Source: Anaerolineaceae bacterium
Lineage (GTDB): Bacteria > Chloroflexota > Anaerolineae > Anaerolineales > Anaerolineaceae
Length of the DNA: 64,000 nucleotides
Assembly (NCBI GenBank): GCA_020845515.1
Contig: JADLFQ010000018.1
Span: 5,186-69,185 of the forward strand
Reading direction: 5' to 3'
The notes under the pieces were generated by a model, which was not told the origin of the DNA, made no database searches, and saw nothing but the letters and a program-made list of their open reading frames with translations. The position numbers were made by a program, and so were the translations under genes. Shown in pieces: positions 44,199-64,000 of this stretch. Positions within the stretch are counted from its first letter, which is position 1. Every line of letters starts with the position of its first letter.

Positions 44199-44325
44199 GT
44201 GGGCTTTGTTTGTCTGTACTGTGCCGCTGGCTTATGCGGGAGTGAGGAAAGCCCGAAGCCGGGGAAGGGTTTATCAGCCGCGCATGCCGTCCGCGGCGCA
44301 CCTGGGCGGTTTTGCACGAAGGGAG

Positions 44326-44862
44326 TTACTCAAACTCCCACCGGTCAGTTCCATTGAGCAGCGCGCGGAGATGATTGATTTCGCCAGCATGATAAAGATC
44401 GTGGGCGATCATAATGCGGATGATGGTACGAGTGGGCAAACGTTTTCCCCAATGCGTAAGGCGTTCTTTCTCCAATTCGGCATCATTGGAGAGGGTGCGA
44501 ACCGAATCGAGCCAGTGTTTATGTCCCTCGGTGAGCCAGCGTAGAAGCTCATCATAGGGGCGCGAACGCGCTCCGCCAGGAGGGACAAGCGGAGGTTGAT
44601 CGCCGCGCATGGCAGCAGACCCGAAAGCATAGTTTTCGTACATCCATTTGCACCAACCGACATGTTCCAGGATATCGGCAATTGAACGCCCGGCGCCAAC
44701 TGGAAGGCTTGTCCATTCGTCGTCTTTCATATCATGGAGGTTGGCAAGAAGTGAATGAGTGGAATCTTCCTGGAAGGCATCTTCAATAAGCCAAACGAGG
44801 GTGTCAATGGCAGTACGAGAGCCTGCATTTCCACCAGATTGATTATTTAAAGCCATGTTCAT
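44326..44862 (-). CDS. DinB-family protein
   Basis: Start MNMALNNQ is preceded by AGGAGGAAAAAA. Four-helix DinB pattern with H...H...DLYHAGEINHL. Confidence 0.75.
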   Translation of the reverse strand: MNMALNNQSGGNAGSRTAIDTLVWLIEDAFQEDSTHSLLANLHDMKDDEWTSLPVGAGRSIADILEHVGWCKWMYENYAFGSAAMRGDQPPLVPPGGARSRPYDELLRWLTEGHKHWLDSVRTLSNDAELEKERLTHWGKRLPTRTIIRIMIAHDLYHAGEINHLRALLNGTDRWEFE

Positions 44863-44863
44863 T

Positions 44864-45019
44864 TTTTTCCTCCTATTGTTAGCGCATATTTTGCTGTGAA
44901 GCGACCACCCGGCGATAAGCGCTGCCTGCGTGCGGGCGGGCGTGGACCCGGTTTGGGGGCGGAAAAACTTGAAGCCGGAAGAATGCAGACTCATGCATGT
45001 CAGGTATGGGTTGTGTCGG
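44864..45019 (-). repeat. degenerate attC-like remnant
   Basis: The minus strand keeps ...CCTGACATG... and GCGCTAAC-AATAGGA, aligned with the L''-TGAC and L' (GCTAAC)-7-nt blocks of the better sites. The R' position is replaced by the DinB RBS. Confidence 0.3.
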
Positions 45020-45027
45020 AGGCTTTT

Positions 45028-45732
45028 TCATGATGGAATCACCATGAATGCCCCCATCATCCAAAATAATCCATGGGCAACGAAGGGGGCAATCAAACTT
45101 GTCCCTCGTTTCCGCAACAAACCCAGGATAATCCCTGTCACAAATGCAGAGCCGAAATCAAGAGGGTGACTCAAATAGCCAAGGTGTGCTGCAGAAAAAA
45201 TAACCGCTTGAACGATAACCGCCGGCCAAACGCTCATCTTTTCTGCGAGGAGCGGCTGCAAGTACCCGCGATACAAATTTTCTTCCACCCAGGCAGGCAA
45301 GCCAAAAGCAAAAAACATTACGAGAAGTAACCGGGCCGGGCTGGGGGTAAACATTTCCGGCTGTGCGGTGTTTCCTTTGAGCATTGCCCATACAATGATA
45401 TTGATATATAGCAATATAAAACCAACCACACCCAGCCCAATGGATTTGAGCACACCCTTTCGTACCCAACCTAATTCCTGCCATGAGGTTTTGGTTAACC
45501 AAACAATTCCCCCCGCGATCAGCCCCATGGACATTAGAACGAACCACAGCAATAAAAATAAAGCAAAGAGGGGGGATTCCTGGAAGTCAAGAGAGCCAAA
45601 CCATTGCCGCCAAATGGCAGTTTCGATGAAGCGCATTAGCGAAAAAGCCACAACCAACATTCCCCCCCACAGGAGACGGTTGTTTTGAAACCATGCACGA
45701 AAGTTTTTTGACTCAGTTGTCATGTTTTTCAC
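45028..45732 (-). CDS. CPBP-family intramembrane glutamic endopeptidase (CAAX protease-like)
   Basis: Multi-TM protein with the VEENLYRG (EExxxR) and FSAAH motifs. Confidence 0.75.
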   Translation of the reverse strand: MKNMTTESKNFRAWFQNNRLLWGGMLVVAFSLMRFIETAIWRQWFGSLDFQESPLFALFLLLWFVLMSMGLIAGGIVWLTKTSWQELGWVRKGVLKSIGLGVVGFILLYINIIVWAMLKGNTAQPEMFTPSPARLLLVMFFAFGLPAWVEENLYRGYLQPLLAEKMSVWPAVIVQAVIFSAAHLGYLSHPLDFGSAFVTGIILGLLRKRGTSLIAPFVAHGLFWMMGAFMVIPS

Positions 45733-46083
45733 TTTAGTGTTTATGGTGCAGGGCGGAGCGCCCGGCGATTAATTATACGAACTTGTGTGCGGCTGTCGTC
45801 ATCCTGTGCAAAGGTGTATTGCACTGCAACCAGGCCTGTTCCTTCAAACAACCGGCTGTGTACTGATTTTAAAATATTATACATGCGGGCTTGTAAAATC
45901 AAATACCCATGACCGATCCGCGCGGCAGGATTATGCGCCGCCAGCCTCCCGCCTCAGGGGTTCGGGCGGACGACCGGGGCGGCAAGGTTTTCCCCCTGTT
46001 ATTCCTGCCGTCCTGGATTTCCGGCTTTCGGAAAGAACCTGATCTTATTTTTTGCTGCCCTGCCAGCAGCCGGACAGGGTGCT

Positions 46084-46551
46084 TCAGGGTTTAGGTGCGT
46101 GAGGGCTGACGTAATCGCCCACCGGGGTGCGGAAGGCGACGTTCATCCGGTTCCAACCATTGATCGCGATGATCGCCAGGGTCAAGTCTACCAGGGTTTT
46201 TTCGTCGAAGTGTTCACGCACTTCGGCGTAGAGCTCATCGGATATTTCCTCTGCGGCGACCAGGGTGACTGCTTCGGTCCAGGCCAGCGCGGCGCGCTCG
46301 CGCGCGCTGTAGCACGGAGCCTCGCGCCAGGTTGGAAGCAGGTATAGGCGCTGCTCGGTTTCGCCGCGGGCGCGGGCGTCTTTGGTGTGCATGTCCAGGC
46401 ACCAGGCGCAGCCGTTGATTTGCGAAGCGCGGGACTTAACCAGCTCCAGCAGAGATTCCTCAAGATCGCTCTTGTGAACCTGCTGTTCGGTATGCATTAA
46501 AGCGTTGAAGGCGCCGGGGGATGAAAGCTTGTAATCGAGTCGTTGACTCAT
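46084..46551 (-). CDS. carboxymuconolactone decarboxylase/AhpD-like family protein
   Basis: INGCAWCLDMH CxxC motif, 155 aa. Confidence 0.8.
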   Translation of the reverse strand: MSQRLDYKLSSPGAFNALMHTEQQVHKSDLEESLLELVKSRASQINGCAWCLDMHTKDARARGETEQRLYLLPTWREAPCYSARERAALAWTEAVTLVAAEEISDELYAEVREHFDEKTLVDLTLAIIAINGWNRMNVAFRTPVGDYVSPHAPKP

Positions 46552-47411
46552 TGGATACCTCCTTGCAAGGCGTTTTTAGGATTTGTAAACAACCCCTGGA
46601 TACTTTCGTAACCCAGGGCGGCATCGAGACCATCAAAGCAGCCGCTGCTTTGCAATTGCCCGGCGGCATCGCGGGCGGCTGATAATGCCATCATAGCCAG
46701 CCTGGTGGCGGTGCTGACGCGTGCCACACCGAGGCGGCCAAGTTCTGCCAGATTTGGCAGGCCGGCGCGGGCGCTGATGTTGACCGGCGCTTCGATCTCC
46801 GTACACAGCCGGGCAATCACTTCGGGTTTTCCCAGGGCGATAGGAAAGATGCAATCGGCGCCGGCTTCAAGATAGGTGTGTGCCCGGCGCAACGTCTCTT
46901 CAATGCGCGCGGCTTCACTGGCGCTGCCGCCGATTATCCAGGTGTCAACGCGCGCGTTGATTACGATCGGCACCCCGGCCTGATGAGCGGCTTGCCGCGC
47001 GGCTGCGATTCGCTGGGCGGCATCGCCTATGTCGCGCAAGCGCTCGTGGCGGACACCGTCCTCCAGGTTGATGCCGGCGATACCGGTATCAATGAGTTTG
47101 CGGACACTGGCAGCCACCGCTCCGGGCGAGTCTCCGTAGCCTGCTTCAAAGTCCACGCTGACCGGGAGCGGGGTGACGCGTACCACGCGCCGGATCGCGG
47201 CGATGACCTCATCCAGCGGCGCCTGCTCGCCATCGGGGTAGCCCAGGGACCAAGCCACACCGCCGCTGGTGGTGGCGATGGCGTCGAAACCAAGGCTGGC
47301 GAAGACCAGCGCACTGCCGGCATCCCAGGCGTTGGGCAAGAGCAACACCCGGCTGCGGTCGTGCAGCGCACGAAAACGCTGTACTTGCTGAATTTGTAAG
47401 TCTTTCTCCAT
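46548..47411 (-). CDS. isocitrate lyase/PEP mutase family protein (methylisocitrate lyase-like)
   Basis: Start at MEKDLQIQQVQRFRALH (47411). LLLPNAWDAGSA, ATTSGG and INLEDG motifs. ATGA overlap with the downstream gene. Confidence 0.75.
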   Translation of the reverse strand: MEKDLQIQQVQRFRALHDRSRVLLLPNAWDAGSALVFASLGFDAIATTSGGVAWSLGYPDGEQAPLDEVIAAIRRVVRVTPLPVSVDFEAGYGDSPGAVAASVRKLIDTGIAGINLEDGVRHERLRDIGDAAQRIAAARQAAHQAGVPIVINARVDTWIIGGSASEAARIEETLRRAHTYLEAGADCIFPIALGKPEVIARLCTEIEAPVNISARAGLPNLAELGRLGVARVSTATRLAMMALSAARDAAGQLQSSGCFDGLDAALGYESIQGLFTNPKNALQGGIQ

Positions 47412-47676
47412 ATTCAACCCTCTCCAAATCATACCGCAGTTTTTGCCACTTTCACCGGGCAATTTGTAATGAAATTCCTTTATTTTATCCAATTTGTATA
47501 AATCATTCATCCCTTGTTGCACGCGGGCTGAGGGTTTTATTCGTGAATTGCGGATGGGCTGGGAGTTTACCCGCCTGCACAGGCACACGCGGGCGCAGAA
47601 AAATGCCCGACTGCCTGAAGGTCATGCCGCAGTTTCACGTATCAGGTAAATACTGTATTGTGCGCTGGTACTGCCA

Positions 47677-48744
47677 TTACGGGACTTGTTGGGTTTTGCT
47701 GAACATTCTTTTCTGAAAATAAAATGCGACATTGACCAAAGCAATCATTACAGGCACTTCAATCAGAGGGCCAATGACCGCCGCAAATGCCGCGCCCGAA
47801 TTAATCCCGAATACAGCAACTGCAACGGCGATAGCCAATTCAAAATTATTGCTTGCGGCGGTAAATGAAAGTGTTGTGGTTTTCGAGTAATCCGCACCGA
47901 CCGCCCGTCCCAAGAAGAATGAAACCAGAAACATGACTACAAAATAAAGCAACAAGGGAATGGCGATACGAACAACATCAAGGGGAAGTTCGACAATGAC
48001 ATCCCCTTTGAGAGAAAACATAACAACGATGGTAAAAAGTAAAGCAATGAGAGTAATCGGGCTGATTTTTGGCACAAAAGTTTTGTGATACCAGTTTTTT
48101 CCTTTTATACGGACAAGAAGCAGCCGGGTTAAAAACCCTGCAATGAACGGAATTCCCAAATAAATAAAGACGCTCTTTGCAATTTCGCGAATGGTTATAT
48201 TAACGATATTACCGGTCAATCCAAACCATGTTGGCAAAACGGTGATGAATAGATAGGCGTATACGCTGTAAAACAGGACTTGAAAAATGCTATTGAAGGC
48301 GACCAGGCCTGCCGCATATTCATTGTCGCCTTTGGCAAGCTCGTTCCATACGATAACCATGGCTATACAACGCGCAAGACCGATAAGAATTAGCCCTGTC
48401 ATATATTCGGGATAGTCACGCAAAAAGAGAATGGCAAGAATGAACATCAAAACGGGGCCAATCACCCAATTTTGCACGAGCGAAAGACTTAGAATTTTCC
48501 AGTTTCGAAAGACATCACCCAATTCTTCATAGTGTACTTTTGCTAGCGGGGGATACATCATCAGAATTAAACCTATGGCGATGGGAATGTTTGTTGTCCC
48601 CACTGAAACAAGATAATTGAATCTTGCGACTTGGTAGGTAAAGAAATAACCAATGAAAACGCCAGCCGCCATGGCAAGAAAAATCCATAAGGTCAGATAC
48701 CGGTCAAGAAAAGATAAACCTTTGCGGGATGCTTGTTTTGCCAT
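47677..48744 (-). CDS. acr3: ACR3-family arsenite efflux transporter
   Basis: [29 protein letters not shown]..., about 10 TM segments, typical of the Acr3/ArsB (BART) family. The start at 48744 follows AAGGAA. Confidence 0.8.
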
Positions 48745-48962
48745 TCTGTTGTTCCTTTTGATAAATTGTAACTGCCAGGCCACTGACATAAAGGGCAGGC
48801 GGAACAAAAGGTGAACCCAGCCAGGCAAGACACAATGCTTCGAGCGCGCTTGCACCGTTCTTCCTTGCCGGCGATATAAACCCGAAGCGTGGAAAGCGCC
48901 TGAAAATGCCGTGTGCTGGCGCCTGTTTGCTTCGCGAAATTCCGCGCGGATGGATTCTCAAA

Positions 48963-49027
48963 AGTGCCTTCGCCGCGTTCACAACACCCCAGACGGCTCC
49001 CAAGCTCCGCCGCGCGGCGAAGGCACT
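48963..49027. repeat. 15-bp perfect inverted repeat with a 35-nt spacer
   Basis: AGTGCCTTCGCCGCG (48963-48977) pairs with CGCGGCGAAGGCACT (49013-49027). On the minus strand it is followed by TTTTGAG. Confidence 0.85.
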
Positions 49028-49099
49028 GATCTTCCTGCCGAGTTTGGCCAAACCTGCGCGGCCAATTGCCGCGATCAGGCTTTCAGTCGGGGAGTGAAA

Positions 49100-49981
49100 T
49101 TAATCGCGCAATGCCCTGATTTGCGAAAGGTGCGTACTTTCATGTGCGGCGAAGTAACTGACCTGCTGGCGGAGGGTTATCGTGCCGAATTCCTCATGTT
49201 TGCCTGTGCGCCACCAATCGGAGAGGGGGAGTGATTCCAGTTTGCGGAGGGTTTCCGCGCGCGAGGTGCGATAGGCCTCGAAGATGTCGTGCACTGAGGG
49301 CGGACGTTCTGTTTCGTTTTTCGCCCATGCAAAGACGGCTTTCGATTCGAGGACAGGATGCAGTTCTTTGAGGAACAAGTTGACGCGAAAATCGAGCACG
49401 CCTTGTGCGTCACGCAGATGACCCAGGGTGTTGCGTATTGCCCAACCGCCATCAGGTGGAATTCGATTCAGCGTTTCGTCGGACAACCCTTCGATGAGTT
49501 TTTCCACTACAAACGGAGTCTGGCGCAGACATTCCAACGCGGCGGGTGGTTCAAGCGCGTCGAACCAATAGTTGGGCATAAAAATTTGGAAGGTCTCCGC
49601 CCACGCGCCGCAGGCAGGACATGGCCCGGTGGGCGGGGTGAGAGTCAAATGTCCGCATATGCGGCAAACATAGGGGTGAGGCGCTGTGGTGATGAGAGGC
49701 AGTCCCCCCTGTGCGAAAGTATCCACACTCTGTTTCATGGCGGATAGCAATTCTGCGCTCACATCCAGGTGAGACAATGTCTCAATCGTTTGCCGGATAT
49801 CGGCGGTTAATTTGTCTTTGTCGGCAGGGATTTCGATGGGATAAGCAGATTGGCGGCATAACGAATCCGCTGCGGCGCGCGTTAGCTTGGCAAGATTATA
49901 TTGCCCTTCTCCTTCCAATCTTGTAGCCAGAGCGAAAAGATGTACAAGCGTGTCTTTCCAATTAGAATTATTTGCAGCCAT
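49100..49981 (-). CDS. fusion of an N-terminal helical domain and rubredoxin-like zinc ribbon with a C-terminal DinB-family domain
   Basis: CRICGH...CPACG zinc ribbon, and C-terminal ...IRNTLGHLRD...YFAAHESTHLSQI, a DinB-like His triad pattern. Confidence 0.6.
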   Translation of the reverse strand: MAANNSNWKDTLVHLFALATRLEGEGQYNLAKLTRAAADSLCRQSAYPIEIPADKDKLTADIRQTIETLSHLDVSAELLSAMKQSVDTFAQGGLPLITTAPHPYVCRICGHLTLTPPTGPCPACGAWAETFQIFMPNYWFDALEPPAALECLRQTPFVVEKLIEGLSDETLNRIPPDGGWAIRNTLGHLRDAQGVLDFRVNLFLKELHPVLESKAVFAWAKNETERPPSVHDIFEAYRTSRAETLRKLESLPLSDWWRTGKHEEFGTITLRQQVSYFAAHESTHLSQIRALRD

Positions 49982-50009
49982 ATCATTTTCTCCTGAAGAC
50001 TCTTGTAAT

Positions 50010-50077
50010 ATCCAATTGCAGGGGGCGGTTACGGGCTGGTATCAACCGGGCTGCCCGCAGGATGGCACCGGCTGGAT
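50010..50077 (-). repeat. attC-like site (weaker)
   Basis: The minus strand reads ATCCAGC-CGGTG-CCATCCTGCGGGCAGCCCGG...CCCGTAACC...TGCA-ATTGGAT. The terminal boxes are complementary (ATCCA/TGGAT) and there is an internal bulged stem CCGGTGCC/GGCAGCCCGG. It is 68 nt, like 56414-56481. Confidence 0.4.
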
Positions 50078-50084
50078 TGCATTG

Positions 50085-50657
50085 TCAGGCGGCTTTATTA
50101 TAATTTCCTTTGTGGATTTCATAGCGCAACTCGACCATGCCTGTTCCCATTTGATGAACAGATGTTAAGCGCAGGGAAGGGCTCAGCACTCTGCGAGGAA
50201 ACAGCGGTTTGCCTTTGCCAAGGGTGGCTGAACCAACCTGGACGATCAGTTCGTCCAATAATCCGGCATCGTAAAACTGGCCCGCGAGATCACCTCCGCC
50301 AACAACCCAGATGTTTCTGTCTCCGGCAGCAGCCCGCATTTCAGCATGGACATGACGCACATCTCCATTGGCGAATCGGATGTTTGCGCCTTCGATGATT
50401 GGAAGTTTGCGACTGGAGAATATCCAGGCTGGTTGAGTGTATGGCCAGGGTGAGCCAGTCTCGGCCACAACTTTTTCTGCGTTTCGCATCAACCATTCGT
50501 AGGTCGCTGATCCCATAGCCAGGGCGCCAACTTCTGATATGAATGCCGGATAGCTGGAATCACCCAGATCGCCAAGGGAGAAAAGCCATTCCAGCGAGTC
50601 GTCTTCAGTCGCGATAAATCCATCAAGGCTTGCAGCTGTGTAGTACTGAGTTTTCAT
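50085..50657 (-). CDS. dihydrofolate reductase-family protein (RibD C-terminal domain)
   Basis: MKTQYYTAASLDGFIA...VVGGGDLAGQF...DELIVQV pattern. Confidence 0.75.
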   Translation of the reverse strand: MKTQYYTAASLDGFIATEDDSLEWLFSLGDLGDSSYPAFISEVGALAMGSATYEWLMRNAEKVVAETGSPWPYTQPAWIFSSRKLPIIEGANIRFANGDVRHVHAEMRAAAGDRNIWVVGGGDLAGQFYDAGLLDELIVQVGSATLGKGKPLFPRRVLSPSLRLTSVHQMGTGMVELRYEIHKGNYNKAA

Positions 50658-50684
50658 AAATTGACCCTGACGCTCCATCGTGCC

Positions 50685-50781
50685 GCCCAACGGCTGATGT
50701 TAGCAACGGCGTAGGCGGGGGTGAAAAAATGTTTGGGAATGCTGCACGCGCCCTGCCTGTCAGATGCGTGTTTTGTCAGCC
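50685..50781 (-). repeat. attC-type recombination site
   Basis: The minus strand reads GGCTGAC-AAAAC-ACGCATC-TGACAGG...-TGCTAAC-ATCAGCC-GTTGGGC. It overlaps the last codons of ORF 50760..51086. Confidence 0.6.
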
Positions 50782-51086
50782 TGTTTTTGTTTGGGCATAA
50801 TCTTTTTTGATTTCGTGACGTCTGTTGGATAAGGTTCTTTTTGTTCAAACAAACGTAACTGCACAGGCAACCCGGAGTATTCAATTATACTATCTGGTAT
50901 TGGCAGCCTTTCAAGAGCACGTGGTTCTACTTTTACAGCACCATCACCATAAGATTTTCCAATTAAGGAAAGATTTGAAATTGTATCCGGGTGATTAAGG
51001 ATTTTCCAAAGACGTTCCATAAATTCTTTATCTTCACTCTTAGGGTAGACGCATAAGAAACCTGTAAGAGGTCTTATCTGATTCAC
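50760..51086 (-). CDS. small protein resembling the C-terminal end of N6-adenine DNA methyltransferase/type IIG enzymes
   Basis: The GTG start follows AAGGAGGAG. The motif SYGDGAVKVEPRALERLPIP resembles the ...GGG.LK.EP.ELE.LPIP tail of Eco57I/PglX-like methylases (from memory). Only 108 aa. Confidence 0.45.
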   Translation of the reverse strand: MNQIRPLTGFLCVYPKSEDKEFMERLWKILNHPDTISNLSLIGKSYGDGAVKVEPRALERLPIPDSIIEYSGLPVQLRLFEQKEPYPTDVTKSKKIMPKQKQADKTRI

Positions 51087-51174
51087 GCTCCTCCTTATCA
51101 GGGATTGGCAGTTCTGCTGACCCCTGTTTATATGTAAAATGGATACAGAAATAAATTACTGCGAGGGAATTGTG

Positions 51175-51870
51175 ATGCCTGCTGCCAAGATACTCATTAT
51201 TGATGATGAATCTTCGATTCATACCGTTCTGAGCGCCTATTTGAAGGCGGAAGGGTATGAATTCAAATCCGCTTATGATGGGATAACCGGGTTGGCTGCG
51301 GCCCGCTCTTTCAAACCGGATATCATTGTGCTGGACGTTATGCTACCCGGCATGGATGGAATTGAGCTGCTGGCTAATCTGAGGCGGGATTCGAACGTTT
51401 ATGTGATCATGCTTACTGCCCGGTCGGAAGAAACCGATAAGATTGTGGGGCTTTCGGTCGGTGCGGATGACTATCTGACCAAACCCTTCAGCCCGCGCGA
51501 ATTGGTTGCCCGCATCAAGGCAGCTCTCAGGCGCTTGCAGAACCCAACCGGGAATACTGGAGAGAATACGGTTCTTAATTTCGTGCATCTTCGCATTGAT
51601 ATTGCCGCCAGGCGGGTCTGGGTGGACGAAAATTTGATTGATTTGACCCCCGTTGAATTTGATTTGCTGGTGGTCCTCGCCCAGCATCAGAGTATGGTTC
51701 TCAGCCGCGAACAATTGTTGGAGAAGATATGGGGATACGATTATTTTGGCGATACTCGTGTGGTGGACGTCCATATCGGGCATATTCGCCAAAAACTAGG
51801 GAGTGAATGCATGATTGAAACGATTCGCGGGGTTGGTTACCGTTTTGAGGATAAGCAGGTGATGCCATGA
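51175..51870 (+). CDS. OmpR-family response regulator
   Basis: KILIIDDE...DIIVLDVMLPGMDG...KPF for the receiver, and a winged-helix C-terminus ...IETIRGVGYRF. Confidence 0.85.
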   Translation: MPAAKILIIDDESSIHTVLSAYLKAEGYEFKSAYDGITGLAAARSFKPDIIVLDVMLPGMDGIELLANLRRDSNVYVIMLTARSEETDKIVGLSVGADDYLTKPFSPRELVARIKAALRRLQNPTGNTGENTVLNFVHLRIDIAARRVWVDENLIDLTPVEFDLLVVLAQHQSMVLSREQLLEKIWGYDYFGDTRVVDVHIGHIRQKLGSECMIETIRGVGYRFEDKQVMP

Positions 51871-53012: not shown

Positions 53013-53145
53013 GGGGGGTTACTTCCCGGATTTCTTTAACGAAACTTTACAAACTCTTTAATGATGCTTCATCCTCCTGGTGTAAGATAGGCCTGCAAGT
53101 AAAAAAGACAGCTCTTGATTGGGCTCAATGAAAGGATGAAACATT

Positions 53146-53400: not shown

Positions 53401-53407
53401 GTGAGAA

Positions 53408-55486: not shown

Positions 55487-55510
55487 ACTGCACCGTGTAA
55501 ATACCTGCCG

Positions 55511-55762
55511 CTATTTTCTTCTTTTTGCTTGATTTGAACGGATGGAAAGCCGCCCTCGAATGGCACTGCTTAAGAGTGATACACCGCCGGACGTGATTAT
55601 GAGAAAAAGGAAGGCGGAAAATAATCTCAACCACTCTCCTTGAAATGCAAAACTGAACTCTCTCACCGAGAAAAACAATCCGGCTACAACGACAAGGATT
55701 CCTAAAGTGCCGATCAAAAATCGAAAGATTGGTCCGATGGAAATCTCATGTGTCTTGAACAT
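55511..55762 (-). CDS. small integral membrane protein (2 TM)
   Basis: 83-aa ORF with two hydrophobic helices and a basic tail. Confidence 0.5.
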   Translation of the reverse strand: MFKTHEISIGPIFRFLIGTLGILVVVAGLFFSVREFSFAFQGEWLRLFSAFLFLIITSGGVSLLSSAIRGRLSIRSNQAKRRK

Positions 55763-55812
55763 AGTATTCAGTCAGCCGTCTGGCTATCAATCAGGCAGCC
55801 TGATGACGCTTC

Positions 55813-56379: not shown

Positions 56380-56413
56380 TTGGTCCTCCTGGAACGGCAA
56401 GATCCTTCAGGCT

Positions 56414-56481
56414 GCCCAACGGTGTGTGTTAGCGACGGACGGGGCGGCGGTTCCATACGTCAGGTGAACGCTTTGTTGGCT
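56414..56481 (-). repeat. attC-type recombination site
   Basis: The minus strand reads AGCCAAC-AAAGC-GTTCACC-TGACG...CGT-CGCTAAC-ACACACC-GTTGGGC. It is 68 nt and lies between two minus-strand ORFs. Confidence 0.65.
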
Positions 56482-56508
56482 GCGTTCTGATAATGAAACC
56501 TGCTCTCC

Positions 56509-57225
56509 CTAACGCCGCGCACGCAAGAGAAAATCCAGAAAATCATACGCGGTCTGCTCTCCGGCTATGTACCCTTCAATAGCCACTCCAACGAACCCCT
56601 GCCCCCAACCAGCATCCGTTACCTCCTGTACAAGCTGACCATTTATCAACAAGCTGAATTGCGCCTCCCGCCCGATGACTTCCAATTGATTGACCCCATA
56701 CGGTCGGATGGTGTCGCTGCGTGTCCATTCTACTATATTCCGCCAGCTACCTGTTTCTATGACCGAGACAGCATATTGCTGGCTATCCGTCATCCGAAAA
56801 TAATAGTAATTACGATTGTCTTGTACGCGGTAGAGCACCCCCCAACTACTGCCACCTTTACTCCCTGCGATATGTTTACAACTCACCCGCAGATGAAAAT
56901 CATCCACCGCATACCCCGTCAGCCAGGCTGTGGATATACTGGTCACGTGACTGACTTCCGCTTCCCAGCGATAACGGCCATCTGCTATCGTTTGGCTAAA
57001 CCGTGCAAAATGCTCACTGGGCTGGTTTCTCACCAACCAGTTATTCTCATTTGTAACAAATCGGTCAAACAAAAGTGTCGCCCATAGCGCCGCATCAGGA
57101 CTTTGCCGCAAGGCTTCCGGCACCACCACGGATGTGTGACAATACGGACAGTTGATAAGCGCCTTACTCCCACTAGACATCAGAGGTGCGCCACACGTTG
57201 GACATTGAAAAGAATGAGCTGTCAT
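56509..57225 (-). CDS. zinc-ribbon protein with a C-terminal beta-sandwich-like domain
   Basis: Start at MTAHSFQCPTCGAPL...CPYCH (57225). The C-terminal region is loosely similar in style to ORF 27140..28006. Confidence 0.55.
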   Translation of the reverse strand: MTAHSFQCPTCGAPLMSSGSKALINCPYCHTSVVVPEALRQSPDAALWATLLFDRFVTNENNWLVRNQPSEHFARFSQTIADGRYRWEAEVSHVTSISTAWLTGYAVDDFHLRVSCKHIAGSKGGSSWGVLYRVQDNRNYYYFRMTDSQQYAVSVIETGSWRNIVEWTRSDTIRPYGVNQLEVIGREAQFSLLINGQLVQEVTDAGWGQGFVGVAIEGYIAGEQTAYDFLDFLLRARR

Positions 57226-57336
57226 GGTTTTTCTTCTTTCGATGCAAAATTCAAATGATTTATATTTGCAGCAAGCCGTTGTTGGGCGGCTTTGTGTTGT
57301 TATAAGAATGCAATCCATCAGCAGGCGGTACGGGTA

Positions 57337-58323
57337 TCAGCGCCTCTTTTCCACTACGATCAAATCGTCGCTCCAATCTGGAATAAATAAGCAGCCAGCA
57401 TGGTAGTCCATGCTGCAAATCTTGGGGAGATTTATCTTGTATGGGTCAGTCTCCAGTGGGTTGTTCCTTTGATTAGATTCGGCGTGATGTTTCCCGACAA
57501 TGGTCGAAATCTGACGGGTAGAGTGGTCCACCATTCGCACCACATGGTTGTAGGTGTCGCCGATGAAGATGTTCCCTTCCTCATCAAGCGATATTGAAAA
57601 AGGCCCATCGAAATACTCGTCTGGATTGCTTCCTAAGGTGGCGGTGTGAGCAAGTTCCCCATCTCCTGAATATCCTGGCTCCCCAGTCCCAACCACTGTA
57701 GAAACCGTGCCTTGATTAACGTTGATCCGCCTCACGCTAAAATTCTTGCTATCCAATACATACATATTGGCGTCCGGCCCAAGACGCATATCATAAATCC
57801 AGTTAAACTGAACCGCCTCAAATGGGACGGTTTCTCCTTGAAATCCGGGATGTCCGTTCCCGAGGGTCAAAACTGGCTCGCCGGCCAAATTGAACTTCCA
57901 GACCCGACATCCCTCGATCTCGTTCACCCATATATACCCTTGCTCGTCATAGACACAGTTCCCAATGTCTTTTAAGCCAATACGTTTAGTATTGATGAAT
58001 AGCTCAGCGGACTTTTTATCTGGTCGGATTTTAAAAACCTCATTGGTACCATTGCTGGAGACAAGCAATGAACCATCGGGTAATTCGGCAATGTAGTGAG
58101 GGTATTTTGCCTCGAAAGGAATGTGATTTCGACTCAGGCCCTTATCGGCTGCGCCAGCCGTCCAGATAAACTCATCCTCAGCCGTAATGCATCCCAGCCA
58201 GTGCTCGTTATAGTCCAGAAAGTATTGTGTGCCTCTTTTGCCATGAAAACCAAATTTCACGAAGCCTTGCTCCCACGATTTGTTCTCCGTAAAGTTGAAG
58301 ATGCGCTTTATTCTCCACTCCAT
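57337..58323 (-). CDS. NHL-repeat beta-propeller protein
   Basis: GTGEPGYSGDGELA...IFIGDTYNHVVRMVD-type blades are repeated. Confidence 0.65.
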   Translation of the reverse strand: MEWRIKRIFNFTENKSWEQGFVKFGFHGKRGTQYFLDYNEHWLGCITAEDEFIWTAGAADKGLSRNHIPFEAKYPHYIAELPDGSLLVSSNGTNEVFKIRPDKKSAELFINTKRIGLKDIGNCVYDEQGYIWVNEIEGCRVWKFNLAGEPVLTLGNGHPGFQGETVPFEAVQFNWIYDMRLGPDANMYVLDSKNFSVRRINVNQGTVSTVVGTGEPGYSGDGELAHTATLGSNPDEYFDGPFSISLDEEGNIFIGDTYNHVVRMVDHSTRQISTIVGKHHAESNQRNNPLETDPYKINLPKICSMDYHAGCLFIPDWSDDLIVVEKRR

Positions 58324-58389
58324 TTTTTCAGCTCCTCAAAGCGGGTATAAACCTGGCCGCCCAACCATGTATTATTCGCTCAAAGAACC

Positions 58390-59541
58390 TCATTCTTTAT
58401 CCCTGATTATCTCCAATTTTACCAGCGGCAAAGCCGTTATTTTTTCTGTTACCGGATACACTTCATTCCCCGGATAGACGATCCAGAGCCGTTCAAGGTT
58501 TAACTCAGAAACTGCAATCCGCATCGAGGGTGTCAGCGCAGGCGCTTCATTGAACTTAACTTCCAGCCCATATCGCCTTCCTTTGTTTTGGAACACCAGG
58601 TCAATTTCCGCGCCGGCGTGTGTGCCCCAAAAATAAGCCGCAGTGGGGCGGAGAATTTGAAGCGCCTGTTCGATGGCAAAACCTTCCCAAGAAGCGCCAA
58701 CCTTGGGATGTCCCAGCAGGATGTGCCGATCAGGAATATCCAACAGGCTATGCAACAATCCCGTATCCCTGAAATAAATTTTTGGAGATTTCACCTGGCG
58801 CTTGCCCAGGTTCTCAAACCAGGGTTGGAGCTGGCGAATCATGAACGTGCCGGTCAGAATATCGAGATAAGAACGCACGGTCTTATCTGAAAGCCCCATC
58901 GAACGGCCAATCTCAGCCGCATTCCATGTTTGCCCGTGATAATGAGCCAGCATGGTCCAGAAGCGGCGCATGGTGACCGCCGGGATGTTGATCCCGAGTT
59001 GAGGAATGTCGCGTTCCAAAAAGGTGCGGATAAAGCCCTCGCGCCAGGCGAAACTGTCTACATCCGAATTGGCAAGAAAAGAACGCGGATAACCACCTCT
59101 CAGCCATAACGTTTCCAAGGTATTTATTCCTGTTTCAGACAGGTTAAACCCCTGCAGTTCAATGAATTCCAGCCTGCCTGCCAGCGTCTCGGACGCCGAT
59201 TTAACAATCTCCGGTGATGCGCTGCCCAAGACCAAGAAGTGCGCCTGATTTTCAGGGCGGTCCACCATAACCCGCAGAACCTGGAAGAGCTCCGGCATTT
59301 TTTGAATTTCATCGAGAATGACCAGCCCTTTCAGTCCGCCCAGCATCAATTCCGGATTCTGCAGCCGGCGCTGGTCAGGAAGAGACTCGATATCAAAGAA
59401 TGTGGATGGCTGATGTTCGGCGAGCTGGCGTGCCAGGGTTGTTTTTCCGCATTGGCGTGGACCTAATAAAGCGGTTACGGGTGAACGCCCAATCGCTGGT
59501 TTTAACCGGTTGAGATAGTCATCTCTCTGGATCATACCCAT
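58390..59541 (-). CDS. AAA-family ATPase with a DUF4143 C-terminal domain
   Basis: LLGPRQCGKTTLA Walker A, VILDEIQ Walker B, and a C-terminal restriction-endonuclease-like region typical of DUF4143 proteins. Confidence 0.8.
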   Translation of the reverse strand: MGMIQRDDYLNRLKPAIGRSPVTALLGPRQCGKTTLARQLAEHQPSTFFDIESLPDQRRLQNPELMLGGLKGLVILDEIQKMPELFQVLRVMVDRPENQAHFLVLGSASPEIVKSASETLAGRLEFIELQGFNLSETGINTLETLWLRGGYPRSFLANSDVDSFAWREGFIRTFLERDIPQLGINIPAVTMRRFWTMLAHYHGQTWNAAEIGRSMGLSDKTVRSYLDILTGTFMIRQLQPWFENLGKRQVKSPKIYFRDTGLLHSLLDIPDRHILLGHPKVGASWEGFAIEQALQILRPTAAYFWGTHAGAEIDLVFQNKGRRYGLEVKFNEAPALTPSMRIAVSELNLERLWIVYPGNEVYPVTEKITALPLVKLEIIRDKE

Positions 59542-59545
59542 ATTG

Positions 59546-59586
59546 TACCTTGAGATATCGGAGTTAAACTCCGATATCTCAAGGTA
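59546..59586. repeat. 41-nt perfect palindrome (20-bp arms) abutting the ATPase start codon
   Basis: TACCTTGAGATATCGGAGTT-A-AACTCCGATATCTCAAGGTA. On the minus strand its 3' arm ends 4 nt before the ATG at 59541 and contains the only SD-like AAGG. Confidence 0.9.
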
Positions 59587-59780
59587 AAGGCTTCCGGCCG
59601 CACTTTATTTTCAAAATAAAGGGGCTTTCAAATAACAAACCGCACTCTCGATCATGATTGATAAAGAGTGCGGCATGATGATGTATGGTAATGGCTATGG
59701 AAACCCGCCCCCATAATATATAGGGGTACGTCTGTCATTTTAATATCCTACGTCCCTATCTGCCGGCACCAAGTCCTGCA

Positions 59781-59845
59781 GGCCGGAACTTGTAGCCGTA
59801 CATCCGACTCGGTCCGCGCGAGAGGAGTCAAAGTAATTACCTAAC
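59781..59845. repeat. copy A of the 37-nt-core repeat family
   Basis: GGCCGGAACTTGTAGCCGTACATCCGACTCGGTCCGC, then GAGAGGAG...ACCTAAC. Confidence 0.85.
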
Positions 59846-59902
59846 GCCCGGATTCATCTGCGTTTAATTGGGACGTTAACCAATTCCAAAGCCGGATCCA
59901 TC

Positions 59903-60478
59903 CTACTCCATATTCTTAAAGGCGCGTTCCAGTAAGTCACTGACTTTGAGTTCGTTTGCCCATTTTCGCAGATAATCCAGATCAAGTTCGCCAGCCCGTG
60001 TTTTTAATACACCAAGAATGTCGCGCCACTGACGCTCCGATACCTCGCCGCCTAGGCGATACCATTCGAGTTTGGCCAGGATGATATCTTCGGGACTGGC
60101 AAATTTTACGCTGACTTCCGATTCAAAAAGGAAGGTCTGGTTTTGGGCACGGACAAGCTGGGATTGCAGAAAGGGACGCGGGTGGGGGATGAAAACATCC
60201 ACTTTGAACATGGATTCGCGATGAATAATGTTAAAACTGGAATGGCGCTGGATGGATTCGGCGATCATTTCATTGTCCATATAAAAATCATCCTGCAAAG
60301 CCAAAACAAACGGCTCGAGATGTTCAAGCCGCATTTCGGTAACGATGTCTGAATCCTGGGTAGTGCGTACCATGCCGTAAAGGGTGCTGGCAAGTGAACC
60401 GCCAATGAGATAAGGGATGCCGAGGCTTTCAAGAACATGGGTGACTTTAGCCGTGACTTCAATTGGTTCATTTTGCAT
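59903..60478 (-). CDS. nucleotidyltransferase-domain protein (MNT-like)
   Basis: Start at MQNEPIEV (60478). LIGGSLASTLYG...QDSDIV is the GS...DxD polymerase-beta-type NTase motif. Confidence 0.6.
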   Translation of the reverse strand: MQNEPIEVTAKVTHVLESLGIPYLIGGSLASTLYGMVRTTQDSDIVTEMRLEHLEPFVLALQDDFYMDNEMIAESIQRHSSFNIIHRESMFKVDVFIPHPRPFLQSQLVRAQNQTFLFESEVSVKFASPEDIILAKLEWYRLGGEVSERQWRDILGVLKTRAGELDLDYLRKWANELKVSDLLERAFKNME

Positions 60479-60725
60479 GAGGCAGCTCTCCATAGACCTT
60501 GTTTGCGATTTCTTCTCCGAGCAGTAATCCCGCCAGTCTACGCCACAATTCGGCTTCGTTGGCTTGGGGATACTGCGAACGCAACCCCGCCAGTGCAAGC
60601 AGTCTGGCCGATTGGTTGAGCTGCGCCACCATTTGCATTTTACGGGTGGGGCTGGCCTGCCGCCAAAGTTGAATTTGCAGGGCTTCCATTTTGGGGTGAG
60701 TGTCAGAGAATAAGGCGCTCATCAA
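60468..60725 (-). CDS. small helical protein, partner of the nucleotidyltransferase gene
   Basis: 85 aa. Its stop overlaps the downstream start by 11 nt (ATGCAAAATGA). Confidence 0.5.
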   Translation of the reverse strand: MMSALFSDTHPKMEALQIQLWRQASPTRKMQMVAQLNQSARLLALAGLRSQYPQANEAELWRRLAGLLLGEEIANKVYGELPHAK

Positions 60726-61021
60726 CTTCCTATCCCTTCAAAGATAATGATTTCATCCTTCCCTAACCCAAATAGATGATAAGCCAGCGCACCAGATATA
60801 TCCGATTGAGGTGTCATGATTTGATTCTACCCGGAAATGTATCCATCAGGACCTCTTGCAACTCTCCAAACCTATTTTGTTTCATAAATTGCCAGTAATC
60901 ACCCGCAGGAATTAATTATATGGTCATTAATTTGAAGATTGAAATAAAAAACGTCTTTCACATTTAGAAGGCGCTTTCTTTTCAGTAGAAAAAATGGGTC
61001 TACCGCGGCCCAATTCCAGCC

Positions 61022-61087
61022 GGCCGGAACTTATGCCCGTACACACGACTTGGTCCGCGGTGGGAGAGGTGAGAGTGACAATCTAAA
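61022..61087. repeat. copy B of the 37-nt-core repeat family
   Basis: GGCCGGAACTTATGCCCGTACACACGACTTGGTCCGC, then GGTGGGAGAGG...ATCTAAA. The TAG stop of ORF 61083..61742 lies in the ATCTAAA block. Confidence 0.85.
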
Positions 61088-61742
61088 GGTTTGCATTACC
61101 CATCAAAAACCTTCCCCCTGATTTAATGTCGTGCGCAAATCCAAAGATGAAGGTCAAGGGCAGGAGGATCACTTCGGCGGCCAGGCATCCAAGCATGATT
61201 GTGATGACGATTTCCGGATTGTTTACACCAGGCAAAAATCCGGTTGTCGCAATCGCTAGTACTATTAGCAACAGCACTGTACCCAAACCCAGAAACCACG
61301 GCCATAATTTGCCTGGCAGGGCTTGCTTACCGTCAAAAAACCTCTCCCAAAAAACCAGGGGTTTGTTGATCTGTCTTGAAACGATGTATATCCACGGAAA
61401 GAATAGAACCTGCGCCATGCCTCCGCCGACCAAAAGAAGCAGGATAAAAAGGAGCAACAAAATGATGGGGCCTTTTTTCTTATGGACATAACCGCATGAC
61501 CAGATGATGACAGTCAGTCCAACCAACATCGCCGCGATGCCGGTGATGAGGAAATTGGGGATCAGAGTGAAAGCAGGTTCATTGCCGTGAGGCCACATCT
61601 TCTGTGTTTCTCCAATTGCAGAAATGAACCGGCCGCCTGTCGGGATGTTCCCCTGGAGAGTTTCAAAGAGACCGTGGTTAATGCCCGATATTCCAAAGAT
61701 CACGCCCAATAAGGCAACGTTGATCCGTGTTGCGCGATTCAT
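61083..61742 (-). CDS. integral membrane protein (about 6 TM)
   Basis: 219-aa hydrophobic protein with a 4-nt overlap with the flavodoxin-like gene. Confidence 0.6.
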   Translation of the reverse strand: MNRATRINVALLGVIFGISGINHGLFETLQGNIPTGGRFISAIGETQKMWPHGNEPAFTLIPNFLITGIAAMLVGLTVIIWSCGYVHKKKGPIILLLLFILLLLVGGGMAQVLFFPWIYIVSRQINKPLVFWERFFDGKQALPGKLWPWFLGLGTVLLLIVLAIATTGFLPGVNNPEIVITIMLGCLAAEVILLPLTFIFGFAHDIKSGGRFLMGNANL

Positions 61743-62263
61743 TTTTTCTCTTTCTCCATCAAAAGTTCATCGGCAATCCCTTTTGCCCAGGCAACAATGT
61801 TCTCCCAATCTCGAAAGTCGCCTTCAGCAGCCTGAACCCGGTTCATCATCCATTTCTCAAGACCGTTCAATTTTTGCAGGTTCACCGCTCCGCGAAAAAC
61901 AGTAATGCTGCGCGGCTGGATCCAATCGGCGGCAGATTGCAGCCCTGATGGGAATTTCCAATCTTGCAGCAGTACTTCCAGGTCACCTTCACCGGTTGGT
62001 CCGCTGGAGAAGAGCCAGACAGGCTTTTGTGCCATATCCATCTTATTTGCTTTCAAGAATGATGCTGCTTCTTTTCGCCACATACCAATGTAGACCGCGC
62101 TGCCCAGCACCACTGCCTGGTAGCCGGTTGATTTTTTGACAGGATTCGCAGGTAAAACGTCGGTTTGCAGACCTGCCTCGCGCAATACCTGTCCAATCCT
62201 CCCGGCTATTTCTGCTGTGTTGCCGTACTTCGAAGCGAATGCTACTAAAACCTTGCCGTCCAT
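61739..62263 (-). CDS. flavodoxin-domain protein (HemG-like family)
   Basis: The start MDGKVLVAFASKYGNTAEIA follows AAGGAG. This is the flavodoxin FMN-binding N-terminus. Confidence 0.7.
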   Translation of the reverse strand: MDGKVLVAFASKYGNTAEIAGRIGQVLREAGLQTDVLPANPVKKSTGYQAVVLGSAVYIGMWRKEAASFLKANKMDMAQKPVWLFSSGPTGEGDLEVLLQDWKFPSGLQSAADWIQPRSITVFRGAVNLQKLNGLEKWMMNRVQAAEGDFRDWENIVAWAKGIADELLMEKEKK

Positions 62264-62328
62264 CTTTGCTCCTTGTTGCACAATCATCCTGAAATTTATG
62301 AGGAATTACATGCTGTGATATGCTGCAC

Positions 62329-62952
62329 CTATTTCTGAATCGAGGTGAGGTTAACTCCCAGAGCGCGGAGAACAAAATCTGCGACTGCGTCCATGTCGAG
62401 CGGTGTAACCCCATTTTCGTCTGCGGTTGACCCCACCCCGAGGTAAAACGTCATGATCATGATGGAGGTGCTTACCGGGTCAGTGGGTTGAAAAACCCCC
62501 TGCTGCATACCCGGGAGCAGGATTTCTTCACAGATGAGCTGCATCATCGGTTCATAGATCTGGCTCAGCTGTGTTTTGAACTGCCTGTTTACACCCTGCA
62601 TGGATGCAAAAAGTACCCTCGCCTGGTTGGGGTTTGCTCTTACATAATCAAAGGCCACAGCCAGGAGCCGTTTTAAGCGCAGGACATAATTATTTTCCTG
62701 ACGGATTTGTTCCGCGATATACGAACAGTGCTCCGCCCCAATCTCTCCCAGGAGGGTGAGCATGAGTTCATTTTTGCTGGGGAAGTAGTTGTAGATTGTT
62801 CCGACGGCAACACCGGCAGCCTGGGTAATGCGGTTGATACTTGCGCCTTCAAAACCCGCGCTTGCAAATTCATCTACAGCAGCTTTGAGCAAACGCTGCC
62901 GGGTTTCGTTTATCAATTTCATACGATTTTCGTTCTTGTAACGGGGTGTCAT
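62329..62952 (-). CDS. TetR/AcrR-family transcriptional regulator
   Basis: LLKAAVDEFASAGFEGASINRITQAAGVAVGTIYNYFPSK HTH. Confidence 0.85.
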   Translation of the reverse strand: MTPRYKNENRMKLINETRQRLLKAAVDEFASAGFEGASINRITQAAGVAVGTIYNYFPSKNELMLTLLGEIGAEHCSYIAEQIRQENNYVLRLKRLLAVAFDYVRANPNQARVLFASMQGVNRQFKTQLSQIYEPMMQLICEEILLPGMQQGVFQPTDPVSTSIMIMTFYLGVGSTADENGVTPLDMDAVADFVLRALGVNLTSIQK

Positions 62953-62970
62953 TTTTTGAATCCTGCAATT

Positions 62971-62996
62971 AATATGAATGAATACTCATTCATATT
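62971..62996. promoter_or_regulatory. candidate TetR operator palindrome
   Basis: AATATGAATGA-ATAC-TCATTCATATT has 11-bp perfect arms and lies 19 nt upstream of the tetR start. Confidence 0.6.
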
Positions 62997-63034
62997 ATCT
63001 AGAATTATTGAATCTGTCAAGAGGTTTTGAGAGA

Positions 63035-63067
63035 TATAAAAAACCGCTTCCCTTGTGGAAAGCGGTT
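63035..63067 (-). terminator. intrinsic terminator (minus strand)
   Basis: The minus strand reads AACCGCTTTCC-ACAA-GGGAAGCGGTT followed by TTTTTTAT. It lies downstream of copy C and upstream of the tetR operator. Confidence 0.65.
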
Positions 63068-63110
63068 CAATTGATTGCTATTTACTTGTCTTTGCTACTA
63101 CCTCATCACA

Positions 63111-63175
63111 GGCCGGAACTTATGCCCGTACACACGACTTGGTCCGCACTAGGGAGGTAAAGGTTGTTGTCTAAA
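63111..63175. repeat. copy C of the 37-nt-core repeat family
   Basis: GGCCGGAACTTATGCCCGTACACACGACTTGGTCCGC (identical to copy B over 37 nt), then ACTAGGGAGG...GTCTAAA. Confidence 0.85.
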
Positions 63176-63318
63176 GGCAAGCGTTTTCGACGGGCGGGGG
63201 ATCTGGCAGTAAAAACGACCAGTTGCCGGATCCGCCTTTAAAACTGAATCCCTGAAAGTGTGGGCTTTGCCCGCACTTGTCCAGTGCACGCGATGTTGGC
63301 TTGTTTTGCGCCAAGAAT

Positions 63319-64000
63319 TTAGGTTTGGATTTCACCTTGACCTTTTAACCCATGCATTTCAATTTCTTGCGTGACTTTGGTTAGCCACAAAAACAATGAC
63401 TCGATTTGTTTTTCTGAAAACTTTCGATTTATCAAGCACTTTAATTCTCTGCCTGCGGGCTGAAATAAACCTGAACTTTGGGCTTCTGCGTACAAAGCCT
63501 GTAATTCTTGTTCAGAGACATCTATTTTGCTCAATAAACCGCCACGTCCAACAAATGCTGAATAAATAGACTGCTGATAAACAGATTTTGGAGGATACCC
63601 AAAACAAAAAGCAACATGAGTACCAGATAGATTGACATTAAGAGAAAAACCTTTTGTACCCCAATGGATTGGAAACGAATTAGTTTTTGCCCATGCCAGT
63701 AATTTCTCAAAAATTAATTTGCCGTTGGGGTCTAAAGAATTGAAAAAGGAACTTTCAGAAATTACAGGCAATGAACCTGATGAAACTTTAGATATATTGG
63801 CAGACTCGTTTCCGACAACAATACTTGTGGATAACAACCTTAATCCACCATCGGCTTTGAAAAATGTAAATTCCAAACAAGTGATCCTTATGCCCTTATT
63901 TCGCAGAAAAGTTGATGTTTGGTGAATTTCAGGCGTAATTTTTTGACCGACAATAACGATTCTTTGGTCGTTATTGAATACAACTGCTTCATCAGAGACC
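63319..64000 (-). CDS. hypothetical protein with its 5' end outside the window
   Basis: The track starts it at the TTG at 63876, but I read the same frame open to 64000 (...VSDEAVVFNNDQRIVIVGQKITPEIHQTSTFLRNKGIRITCLEFTFFKADGG...). The gene is AT-rich. Confidence 0.55.
   Translation of the reverse strand, partial: VSDEAVVFNNDQRIVIVGQKITPEIHQTSTFLRNKGIRITCLEFTFFKADGGLRLLSTSIVVGNESANISKVSSGSLPVISESSFFNSLDPNGKLIFEKLLAWAKTNSFPIHWGTKGFSLNVNLSGTHVAFCFGYPPKSVYQQSIYSAFVGRGGLLSKIDVSEQELQALYAEAQSSGLFQPAGRELKCLINRKFSEKQIESLFLWLTKVTQEIEMHGLKGQGEIQT

Follow-up and report, generated by a model that had tools for sequence, protein, structure and literature searches.

Is the AT-richer right-hand part of a contig from an Anaerolineaceae bacterium (phylum Chloroflexota) an array of integron gene cassettes, and if it is, does the array still work? 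The DNA in question, referred to here as the window, is a stretch of 64,000 nucleotides (nt) of contig JADLFQ010000018.1 (assembly GCA_020845515.1, contig positions 5,186 to 69,185, forward strand), and all positions below are those of the window unless a contig is named. A sequence-only reading had proposed that its right-hand part holds a cassette array, read on the minus strand, with recognizable attC recombination sites and no integrase. We find that the region from ~44.3 to 64 kb is likely to be the remnant of a decayed integron cassette array, of the type known as CALIN (a cluster of attC sites that has no integron integrase), lying in an Anaerolineaceae chromosome. As judged from their sequences, the attC sites that it retains are mutated and probably inactive.

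attC-homologous sites on the minus strand

The three intergenic sites on which the sequence-only reading was based can all be found at 56481→56414, 55018→54869 and 50781→50685 of the minus strand, and are named S56, S55 and S50. Their common 5' box, YAACAAARCRYKCAYCTGAC, is matched three times in the 64 kb, only at these sites, against 0.13 matches expected by chance, and none of 100 dinucleotide-preserving shuffles reached three matches. The 3' box, TRAC-N5-CC-RTTGGRC, has exact matches in the window at these sites alone, and is no commoner than chance when two mismatches are permitted. The R''…R' layout attributed to the sites is recognizable as an architecture in all three, but the strict consensus RYYYAAC…GTTRRRY is found in both boxes of none of them. 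A scan for the strict consensus, tried as a detector, misses every one of these sites and returns chance pairs only. Because the boxes depart from the strict consensus and the sites fold no better than shuffled sequences, inspection of the sequence alone could not settle what the sites are.

A covariance model, R1, was trained on 35 sites from outside the window, with no window sequence among them, and the whole window was searched with the filters off; R1 E values come from a shortened calibration. The six best R1 matches share the minus strand and fall without exception within 44.9 to 63.3 kb (Table 1), which bears out the proposed orientation. The next matches, at 8.8 bits or less, are noise from the plus strand or the backbone, and a sequence-only nhmmer profile gives the same picture. 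All three original sites are recovered. Of two weaker sites that had been suggested, the one at 44864-45019 is real (S45, 45021→44907, 31.0 bits), and the one at 50010-50077 is without support from either R1 or nhmmer. A further probable remnant at 63301→63169 (S63), which the earlier reading had missed, scores at noise level; its boxes AGCCAAC-ATCGC-GTGCAC…GAAAAC-GCTTGCC-TTTAGAC both fit the loose family patterns, and the order of attC, a conserved 35-nt element and a terminator is the same as at a 108-bit family site in an Anaerolineaceae metagenome-assembled genome (MAG; contig L005). The 3' half of an attC at 61100→61075 agrees by eye with the family L'-spacer-R' consensus at 18 of 20 positions, and nhmmer returns at 61100→61083 a match to the 3' box only, below significance. 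At 58365→58356 the isolated GTTGGGCGGC does occur as had been reported, but only as an R'-like box.

S56, S55, S50, S45 and S63, all on the minus strand, each overlap or start 0-64 nt past a minus-strand stop codon, so the description of sites lying directly 3' of minus-strand open reading frames (ORFs), with S50 overlapping one of them, was accurate. Two explanations that would separate these sites from integrons were weighed against this evidence. Chance resemblance of three intergenic regions, for which only the degeneracy of the individual boxes speaks, is the least probable of the explanations that we considered: it is opposed by the three 5'-box matches against 0.13 expected, and by an independent model with E values of 5e-11 to 1.5e-3 for sites on one strand and in one block. 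An ordinary dispersed repeat family of the REP (repetitive extragenic palindromic) or MITE (miniature inverted-repeat transposable element) kind, resembling attC and unrelated to integrons, would account for sites that fold no better than shuffles and that fail the strict pattern. The earlier reading had named repeats scattered in non-cassette contexts as the mark of such a family. No copies were found in the 44-kb backbone of the window, and R1 has no match at E<=0.01 in contigs L001-L004 and L006 (~59 kb) and none at E<=1 in L129-L131 (37.6 kb), which argues against dispersed repeats. All copies are moreover co-oriented and at ORF 3' ends, and array sites that adjoin integrases matching TIGR02249 are their homologs (E down to 5e-11). 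We regard a REP- or MITE-like origin as highly improbable.

The same attC family in complete Anaerolineae integrons

Metagenome contigs were scanned for the specific 5' box YAACAAAGCRYKCACCTGACR, and the family that it marks is present in at least 120 of them. Among the matches listed, co-oriented arrays with a spacing of 0.5-1.7 kb are common (seven sites on L012, five each on L022 and L028, and four on L026). The outside copies are a homogeneous element of ~127-131 nt with the consensus GCCTAAC-AAAGC-GTGCACCTGACGYKGGGG...CCCCMRCGCAGGTAAC-GCAAACC-GTTRGGC. Aligned, 35 diverse copies yield a consensus hairpin (-29.3 kcal/mol) in which the R box is paired, the 5' arm has bulged bases, the L box forms a helix (ACCTG/CAGGT), and the stem alternates between CTG/CAG and TGT/ACA in a compensatory manner; five pairs show compensatory changes. 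Intact outside members have the complementary R'' (RYYYAAC) and R' (GTTRRRY) boxes. The consensus hairpin is textbook attC anatomy.

Five contigs among the matches listed (L007, L016, L032, L035 and L105) carry a full-length IntI1-like gene (47-50% identity, ~320 amino acids [aa]) in the canonical position, upstream of and divergent from the co-oriented sites. The four proteins tested (those of L016, L032, L035 and L105) match the TIGR02249 "integron integrase" model end to end with 449-465 bits, the cutoff being 265. The L016 IntI, at 465 bits, has the same sequence (100% identity) as the integron integrase annotated in Candidatus Denitrolinea symbiosum, and further close relatives, among the best 120 of 7,999, are named Anaerolineae, Anaerolineales or Chloroflexota. 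At the Ca. Denitrolinea genome locus (L127), intI is followed by three co-oriented family attC sites on the opposite strand. The GC content of that array is 0.466 against 0.647 for the backbone, a contrast that mirrors the one in the window, where GC is 0.496 at 44.2-64 kb and 0.588 at 1-44.2 kb, in agreement with the earlier remark that several of the units are AT-richer. The 108-bit site of L005 was outside the training set of R1. These results show that complete integrons of Anaerolineae use this attC family, and sequence and model comparison show the window sites to be homologous to the attC sites of real integrons. The integron-type interpretation of the three original sites thereby holds, with E values of 5e-11 to 1.5e-3 on a model whose source sites adjoin TIGR02249 integrases in canonical geometry.

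Some outside loci deserve separate mention. Loci with an identical IntI differ in their intI-proximal cassettes: L016 has two intact attC sites (133-143 bits) within 3 kb, and those of L127 comprise a TIR-WD40 gene and an attC of 46 bits. The differences between L016 and L127/L128 suggest that cassette turnover is ongoing in the Ca. Denitrolinea population. In L127, positions 2390-5679 hold two IS110-family transposase genes flanking a partial attC match at 3946-4044 (model positions 15-114 only), which suggests insertion of an insertion sequence into or beside an attC site. The 108-bit site at L005 523-651 has a rearranged 3' stem (CCCAC-CTGCAAG-CAGGT), is without the hairpin (z +0.7/+1.7), and stands alone, no further attC lying within 5.5 kb of it; possibly this site too is a relic.

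Erosion of the window sites

Intact members of the family score 100-148 bits on R1, and the window sites 9-51 bits. In a model-guided alignment, which favors structure, S55 and S56 each keep 17 of the 22 consensus pairs and S45 and S50 each keep 15, against a training mean of 21.1 and a training minimum of 17. The R''/R' layout is present in all of the window sites and the strict consensus in both boxes in none. S55 is the best preserved in sequence; its R' box is ATTGGAC, with a G-to-A change, and three of its L-box pairs are broken. S56 is the only site with both the AAC of R'' and the GTT of R', and has lost its interior and part of the L box. The R'' box of S50 is GGCTGAC, where an A-to-G change gives GAC for AAC, and its R' box is GTTGGGC. 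Both catalytic boxes of S45 are mutated (CCGAC in R'', GCCGGGT in R', hence GAC and GCC), and S63 has TTT in place of GTT.

In single-strand folding with DNA parameters, a check that the sequence-only reading had proposed, no window site adopts the family hairpin (z -2.0 to +1.8). S55 forms an interior stem only (z -0.35/-0.54), S56 folds no better than its shuffles (z +1.8/+1.6), S45 forms no hairpin (z +1.1/+0.7), and the minimum free energy (MFE) structure of S50 is one other than the attC hairpin. Control sites from L022, L012 and L127 (6791-6921) adopt the full attC hairpin under the same conditions (z -1.6 to -3.7). The last of these, the 46-bit site of the complete Ca. Denitrolinea integron, is diverged in sequence, yet it folds, its L box having compensatory changes. 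As a stand-alone test, thermodynamic folding is not diagnostic: the window sites fail it, and so does the 108-bit site of L005.

Spacing has also changed relative to intact arrays. The distances between successive sites in the window are 1.4, 4.1, 1.75, 3.8 and 6.7 kb, against 0.5-1.7 kb in intact arrays. The unit that carries a TetR gene has its own promoter and operator, with a terminator ahead of them.

A likely relic of a cassette array

The CALIN definition asks for at least two attC sites within 4 kb and no integrase, and S56 and S55 are 1.4 kb apart; the gap between S55 and S50 is 4.09 kb, and that between the remnant at 48.9 kb and S45 is 3.8 kb. The ensemble that marks a complete integron, an adjacent divergent intI of the TIGR02249 type with attI and the cassette promoter Pc, is not found within the 64-kb window. 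A tblastn search of the window with IntI1 and XerC as probes detected no tyrosine recombinase, in agreement with the earlier statement that an integrase is lacking there.

The same absence would be expected if the region were the distal end of a sedentary chromosomal integron that is still active, with intI and attI beyond position 64000 or on another contig and an IntI tolerant of diverged sites. The minus-strand orientation does place intI to the right, as in L007, L016 and L127; MAG assemblies often break within integrons (PMC9024848); complete Anaerolineae integrons of this attC family include sites as low as 46 bits; and S56 retains AAC, GTT and 17 of 22 pairs. However, the family hairpin is adopted by none of the four significant window sites but is present in the 46-bit reference site, and S55, S50, S45 and S63 are substituted in the GTT or AAC of their cleavage boxes. 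Attachment-site-proximal cassettes, those next to attI, are normally the most recent, whereas S63, which is nearest to where intI is presumed to lie, is more degraded than any other remnant (8.9 bits). The distances between sites are several-fold those of intact arrays. None of the best 120 of 7,999 IntI-family relatives is on a contig of the length of the source contig (69,952 nt), which is weak evidence in the same direction. We consider an active integron unlikely because the sites lack the hairpin and cleavage-box bases, because S63 is the most degraded, and, more weakly, because none of those 120 IntI relatives is on a contig of that length.

An integrase-less attC cluster, which the sequence-only reading had offered as its alternative, fits better than an active array, since the sites are eroded, their L boxes are broken, the cleavage boxes are changed in all but one, and none forms the hairpin. 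Several points nevertheless weigh against a decayed array. The sites that bring the region under the CALIN definition were called with the family-specific R1 rather than with the generic model of IntegronFinder, and the calibration behind the R1 E values was a shortened one. The absence of intI applies to the 64-kb window, and an intI could lie to the right of 64000, where up to ~6 kb of contig follow, or elsewhere in the MAG. The occurrence of a 46-bit site inside the complete Ca. Denitrolinea integron means that a low score alone is no proof of inactivity, and the poor folding of the 108-bit L005 site shows that MFE folding stands in only imperfectly for function. For the cargo genes of the region, ~490 kb of intact arrays yielded no homologs. 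Finally, close relatives of the NucS-like gene at the right end of the window are in non-cassette contexts, so the arrival of individual genes as cassettes cannot be shown.

For the decayed array that we favor, we infer capture by IntI and later decay. An integron integrase would have captured promoterless cassettes one at a time, each an ORF with an attC of ~130 nt, through recombination between attI and the attC bottom strand in its folded form, and the outcome would have been a co-oriented minus-strand array with intI expected to its right. The array would then have ceased to be maintained by recombination. Most attC sites would have lost bases of the R''/R' cleavage boxes or L-box pairing and would no longer fold, and several would have gone entirely, leaving the wider distances (1.4-6.7 kb) between those that remain. 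Modules that do not resemble cassettes, namely a plus-strand two-component/CueP operon and the TetR unit, which has a promoter and operator of its own, would have come to lie inside the array. The present region would accordingly be a fixed, AT-richer accessory island and not a shuffling platform.

Gene content of the region

The features of the window are collected in Table 1. The minus-strand cargo is varied, and includes two DinB_2 genes, one of them fused to a Zn-ribbon, and two RibD_C genes (Pfam). NCBIfam gave no match for the unannotated ORFs of the window. Rfam gave none at the gathering threshold in the whole window, nor at E<=1 in 44-64 kb, the attC sites included, and there are no tRNA or tmRNA genes in the window that could have served as integration targets. 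Homologs of the cargo were absent from the ~490 kb of intact arrays; the DUF4143 ATPase and an AbiEii fragment have homologs in L006, which is not an array. The "NTase pair" of the sequence-only reading could not be verified, the truncated AbiEii fragment at 54334-54678 being the only nucleotidyltransferase-like sequence; part of L006 matches it at 86% identity.

Table 1. Positions of attC-related sites, copies of the 35-nt element and other features. Positions refer to the window except where a contig is named.
Feature	Position	Strand	Evidence and remarks
S55, attC family, 150 nt	54869..55018	minus	R1 50.8 bits, E 5e-11; nhmmer E 6e-14
S56, attC family, 68 nt, interior deleted relative to the ~130-nt family	56414..56481	minus	R1 38.5 bits, E 7e-8
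S45, attC family, leftmost site of the array	44907..45021	minus	R1 31.0 bits, E 5.8e-6; nhmmer E 2e-5; directly 3' of the CPBP-protease ORF
S50, attC family, 97 nt	50685..50781	minus	R1 21.6 bits, E 1.5e-3; overlaps end of ORF 50760-51086
Marginal attC remnant	48803..48936	minus	R1 12.9 bits, E 0.24; nhmmer interior match E 0.04; between Zn-ribbon/DinB and SBF transporter ORFs
S63, probable attC remnant	63169..63301	minus	R1 8.9 bits, E 2.5 (noise level); directly 3' of the NucS-like ORF
3' half of attC, GGTAATGCAAACCTTTAGAT	61075..61100	minus	Inside end of ORF 61083-61742
35-nt element, copy 1	63111..63145	minus	~25 nt past S63 R'; then terminator 63068→63041 and TetR promoter 63020→62992
35-nt element, copy 2	61022..61056	minus	Directly after the attC 3' remnant
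35-nt element, copy 3, 5 substitutions	59781..59815	minus	After R'-like GTTAGGT, upstream of the AAA_14/DUF4143 ATPase gene
35-nt element, copies outside the window	L004 369-403; L005 465-499; L006 764-798; L068 79-113
Low-GC block with putative cassette cargo	44326..64000	minus	Pfam and composition
Minus-strand cargo: NucS-like, TetR-flavodoxin-hyp219, hyp231, AAA_14/DUF4143 ATPase, NHL, Zn-ribbon/3-keto-disaccharide hydrolase, RibD_C		minus	Pfam
Minus-strand cargo, continued: two small ORFs, hyp108, RibD_C, Zn-ribbon-DinB, SBF, PEP mutase, CMD, CPBP protease, DinB_2		minus	Pfam
Response regulator, histidine kinase, SHOCT, hypothetical protein, CueP, truncated AbiEii	51139-54678	plus
Castor/Pollux-type K+ channel gene, backbone	42211..44154	plus	Adjoins left end of the array; 100% identical to protein MCC6146447.1

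The plus-strand block at 51139-54678 lies inside the 4.1-kb interval between S55 and S50. CueP is a periplasmic copper-binding protein, and the block is probably a copper-responsive operon that was inserted into, or captured by, the array. To the left of the array, the high-GC backbone contains a single ORF of 3,759 aa (30740-42019, minus strand). Relatives of the adjoining channel gene (75% and 62% identity) have no common neighbor genes and no attC, so a fine-scale comparison of presence and absence is impossible.

The NucS-like gene (PF01939, ~356 aa) occupies 63319-64000 on the minus strand, and its ORF runs past the end of the window. Relatives that are 82-89% identical come from metagenomes and from MAGs that bear the name Fervidobacterium, and those at 59-74% identity are named Chloroflexota, Anaerolineae and Geobacteraceae. 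No attC sites were found near the relatives in the three contexts examined, where the neighborhoods are chromosomal and mutually unrelated. The gene has the appearance of a single gene that is mobile on its own or often transferred.

A conserved 35-nt element

A 35-nt core, GGACCAAGTCGTGTGTACGGGYATAAGTTCCGGCC, preceded by a CU-rich leader of ~25 nt, is found in three copies on the minus strand of the window. Outside the window it occurs once each in three Anaerolineaceae/Bellilinea MAGs and once in the metagenomic array contig L068. The element directly follows an attC R' box, and so starts at the 5' boundary of a cassette, in five of eight copies (the three window cassettes, L005 and L068), and an intrinsic terminator comes after it in four of eight (the three window copies and L005). 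The copy at 63 kb in the window and the L005 copy are homologous from the attC through the terminator, and their flanking genes differ. The consensus structure is weak, and single copies form modestly stable folds. The element has no match in Rfam and is not a tRNA or tmRNA; a scan of viral contigs returned no matches, and it is absent from nearly all of the intact arrays examined.

Several identities for the element were considered by eye and rejected. It has no domain V-like hairpin, as would be expected of the end of a group IIC-attC intron; it is absent from the intI-proximal regions examined, where an attI remnant would be sought; it lacks the inverted arms of a dif-like site; a 1-nt indel and the lack of a start codon speak against a small peptide; and a promoter was likewise discarded. 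Tentatively, and with more doubt than conviction, we suggest that core and leader together are a non-coding element, not described before, that is carried along with integron cassettes of Anaerolineaceae. Candidate identities are a small RNA, a 3' untranslated region module, or a binding site for a protein or recombinase, and the element is unlikely to be coding.

The element also accompanies an AAA_14/DUF4143 ATPase gene in two places, the window (gene 59541-58390, element 59815-59781) and the Bellilinea MAG contig L006 (gene 2-565, element 798-764). The two ATPases are 49% identical in aa sequence, and both of these element copies are extended on the 3' side by GGACTTGGT, which is able to pair with the core's 5' half. 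Element and ATPase gene may form a conserved module.

Comparison with known integrons

The attC of aadA7 in class 1 integrons has the layout R''-5 nt-L''…L'-6/7 nt-R' and a bulged 5' arm of the top strand, like the window sites; it is ~60 nt long against ~130 nt here, and no sequence homology beyond the boxes is apparent. The superintegron of Vibrio cholerae is a sedentary chromosomal integron with homogeneous Vibrio cholerae repeats (VCRs) of ~120 nt. Arrays of near-identical attC sites are the hallmark of sedentary chromosomal integrons, and the outside relatives of the window sites, near-identical and ~130 nt long, share it. The family members in the window, unlike the homogeneous attC sites of sedentary integrons, have diverged from one another and from the consensus.

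Among the closest counterparts is the Ca. Denitrolinea symbiosum integron (GCA_017312345.1, BLAA01000001.1, ~2.453-2.464 Mb), where sites of the same attC family score 92, 76 and 46 bits. Co-oriented sites, an array AT-richer than its backbone and membership of the class Anaerolineae are common to both. The Ca. Denitrolinea locus has an intact, adjacent and divergent intI of the TIGR02249 type and at least some correctly folding attC sites, whereas the window has eroded sites and is without intI. The homogeneous ~130-nt attC family of Anaerolineae type defined here is abundant in metagenomes, and R1 detects diverged relics of it.

Integrons have already been documented in Chloroflexi/Chloroflexota (PMC4889954, PMC8618304) and integron integrases are already annotated in Anaerolineae genomes, so the novelty that the sequence-only reading had claimed for an array in this background was overstated. 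With Chloroflexota integrons and degraded CALINs both described, the locus leaves the understanding of integrons unchanged and holds no surprise for a specialist. CALINs (Cury et al. 2016, PMC4889954; Néron et al. 2022, PMC9024848) are defined by matches to the generic IntegronFinder model no more than 4 kb apart, whereas the window sites were called by R1 and two of the gaps are ~4 kb or more. Common to both are at least two co-oriented attC-homologous sites, no integrase nearby, and cargo mostly of unknown or miscellaneous function. CALINs have been proposed to be degraded integrons (PMC4889954, PMC9024848), and the window would be a documented example of the death of an integron array in a little-studied phylum, in which cleavage boxes and pairing are lost, a number of sites disappear, and the cargo stays on as a fixed accessory island that has promoters and terminators of its own.

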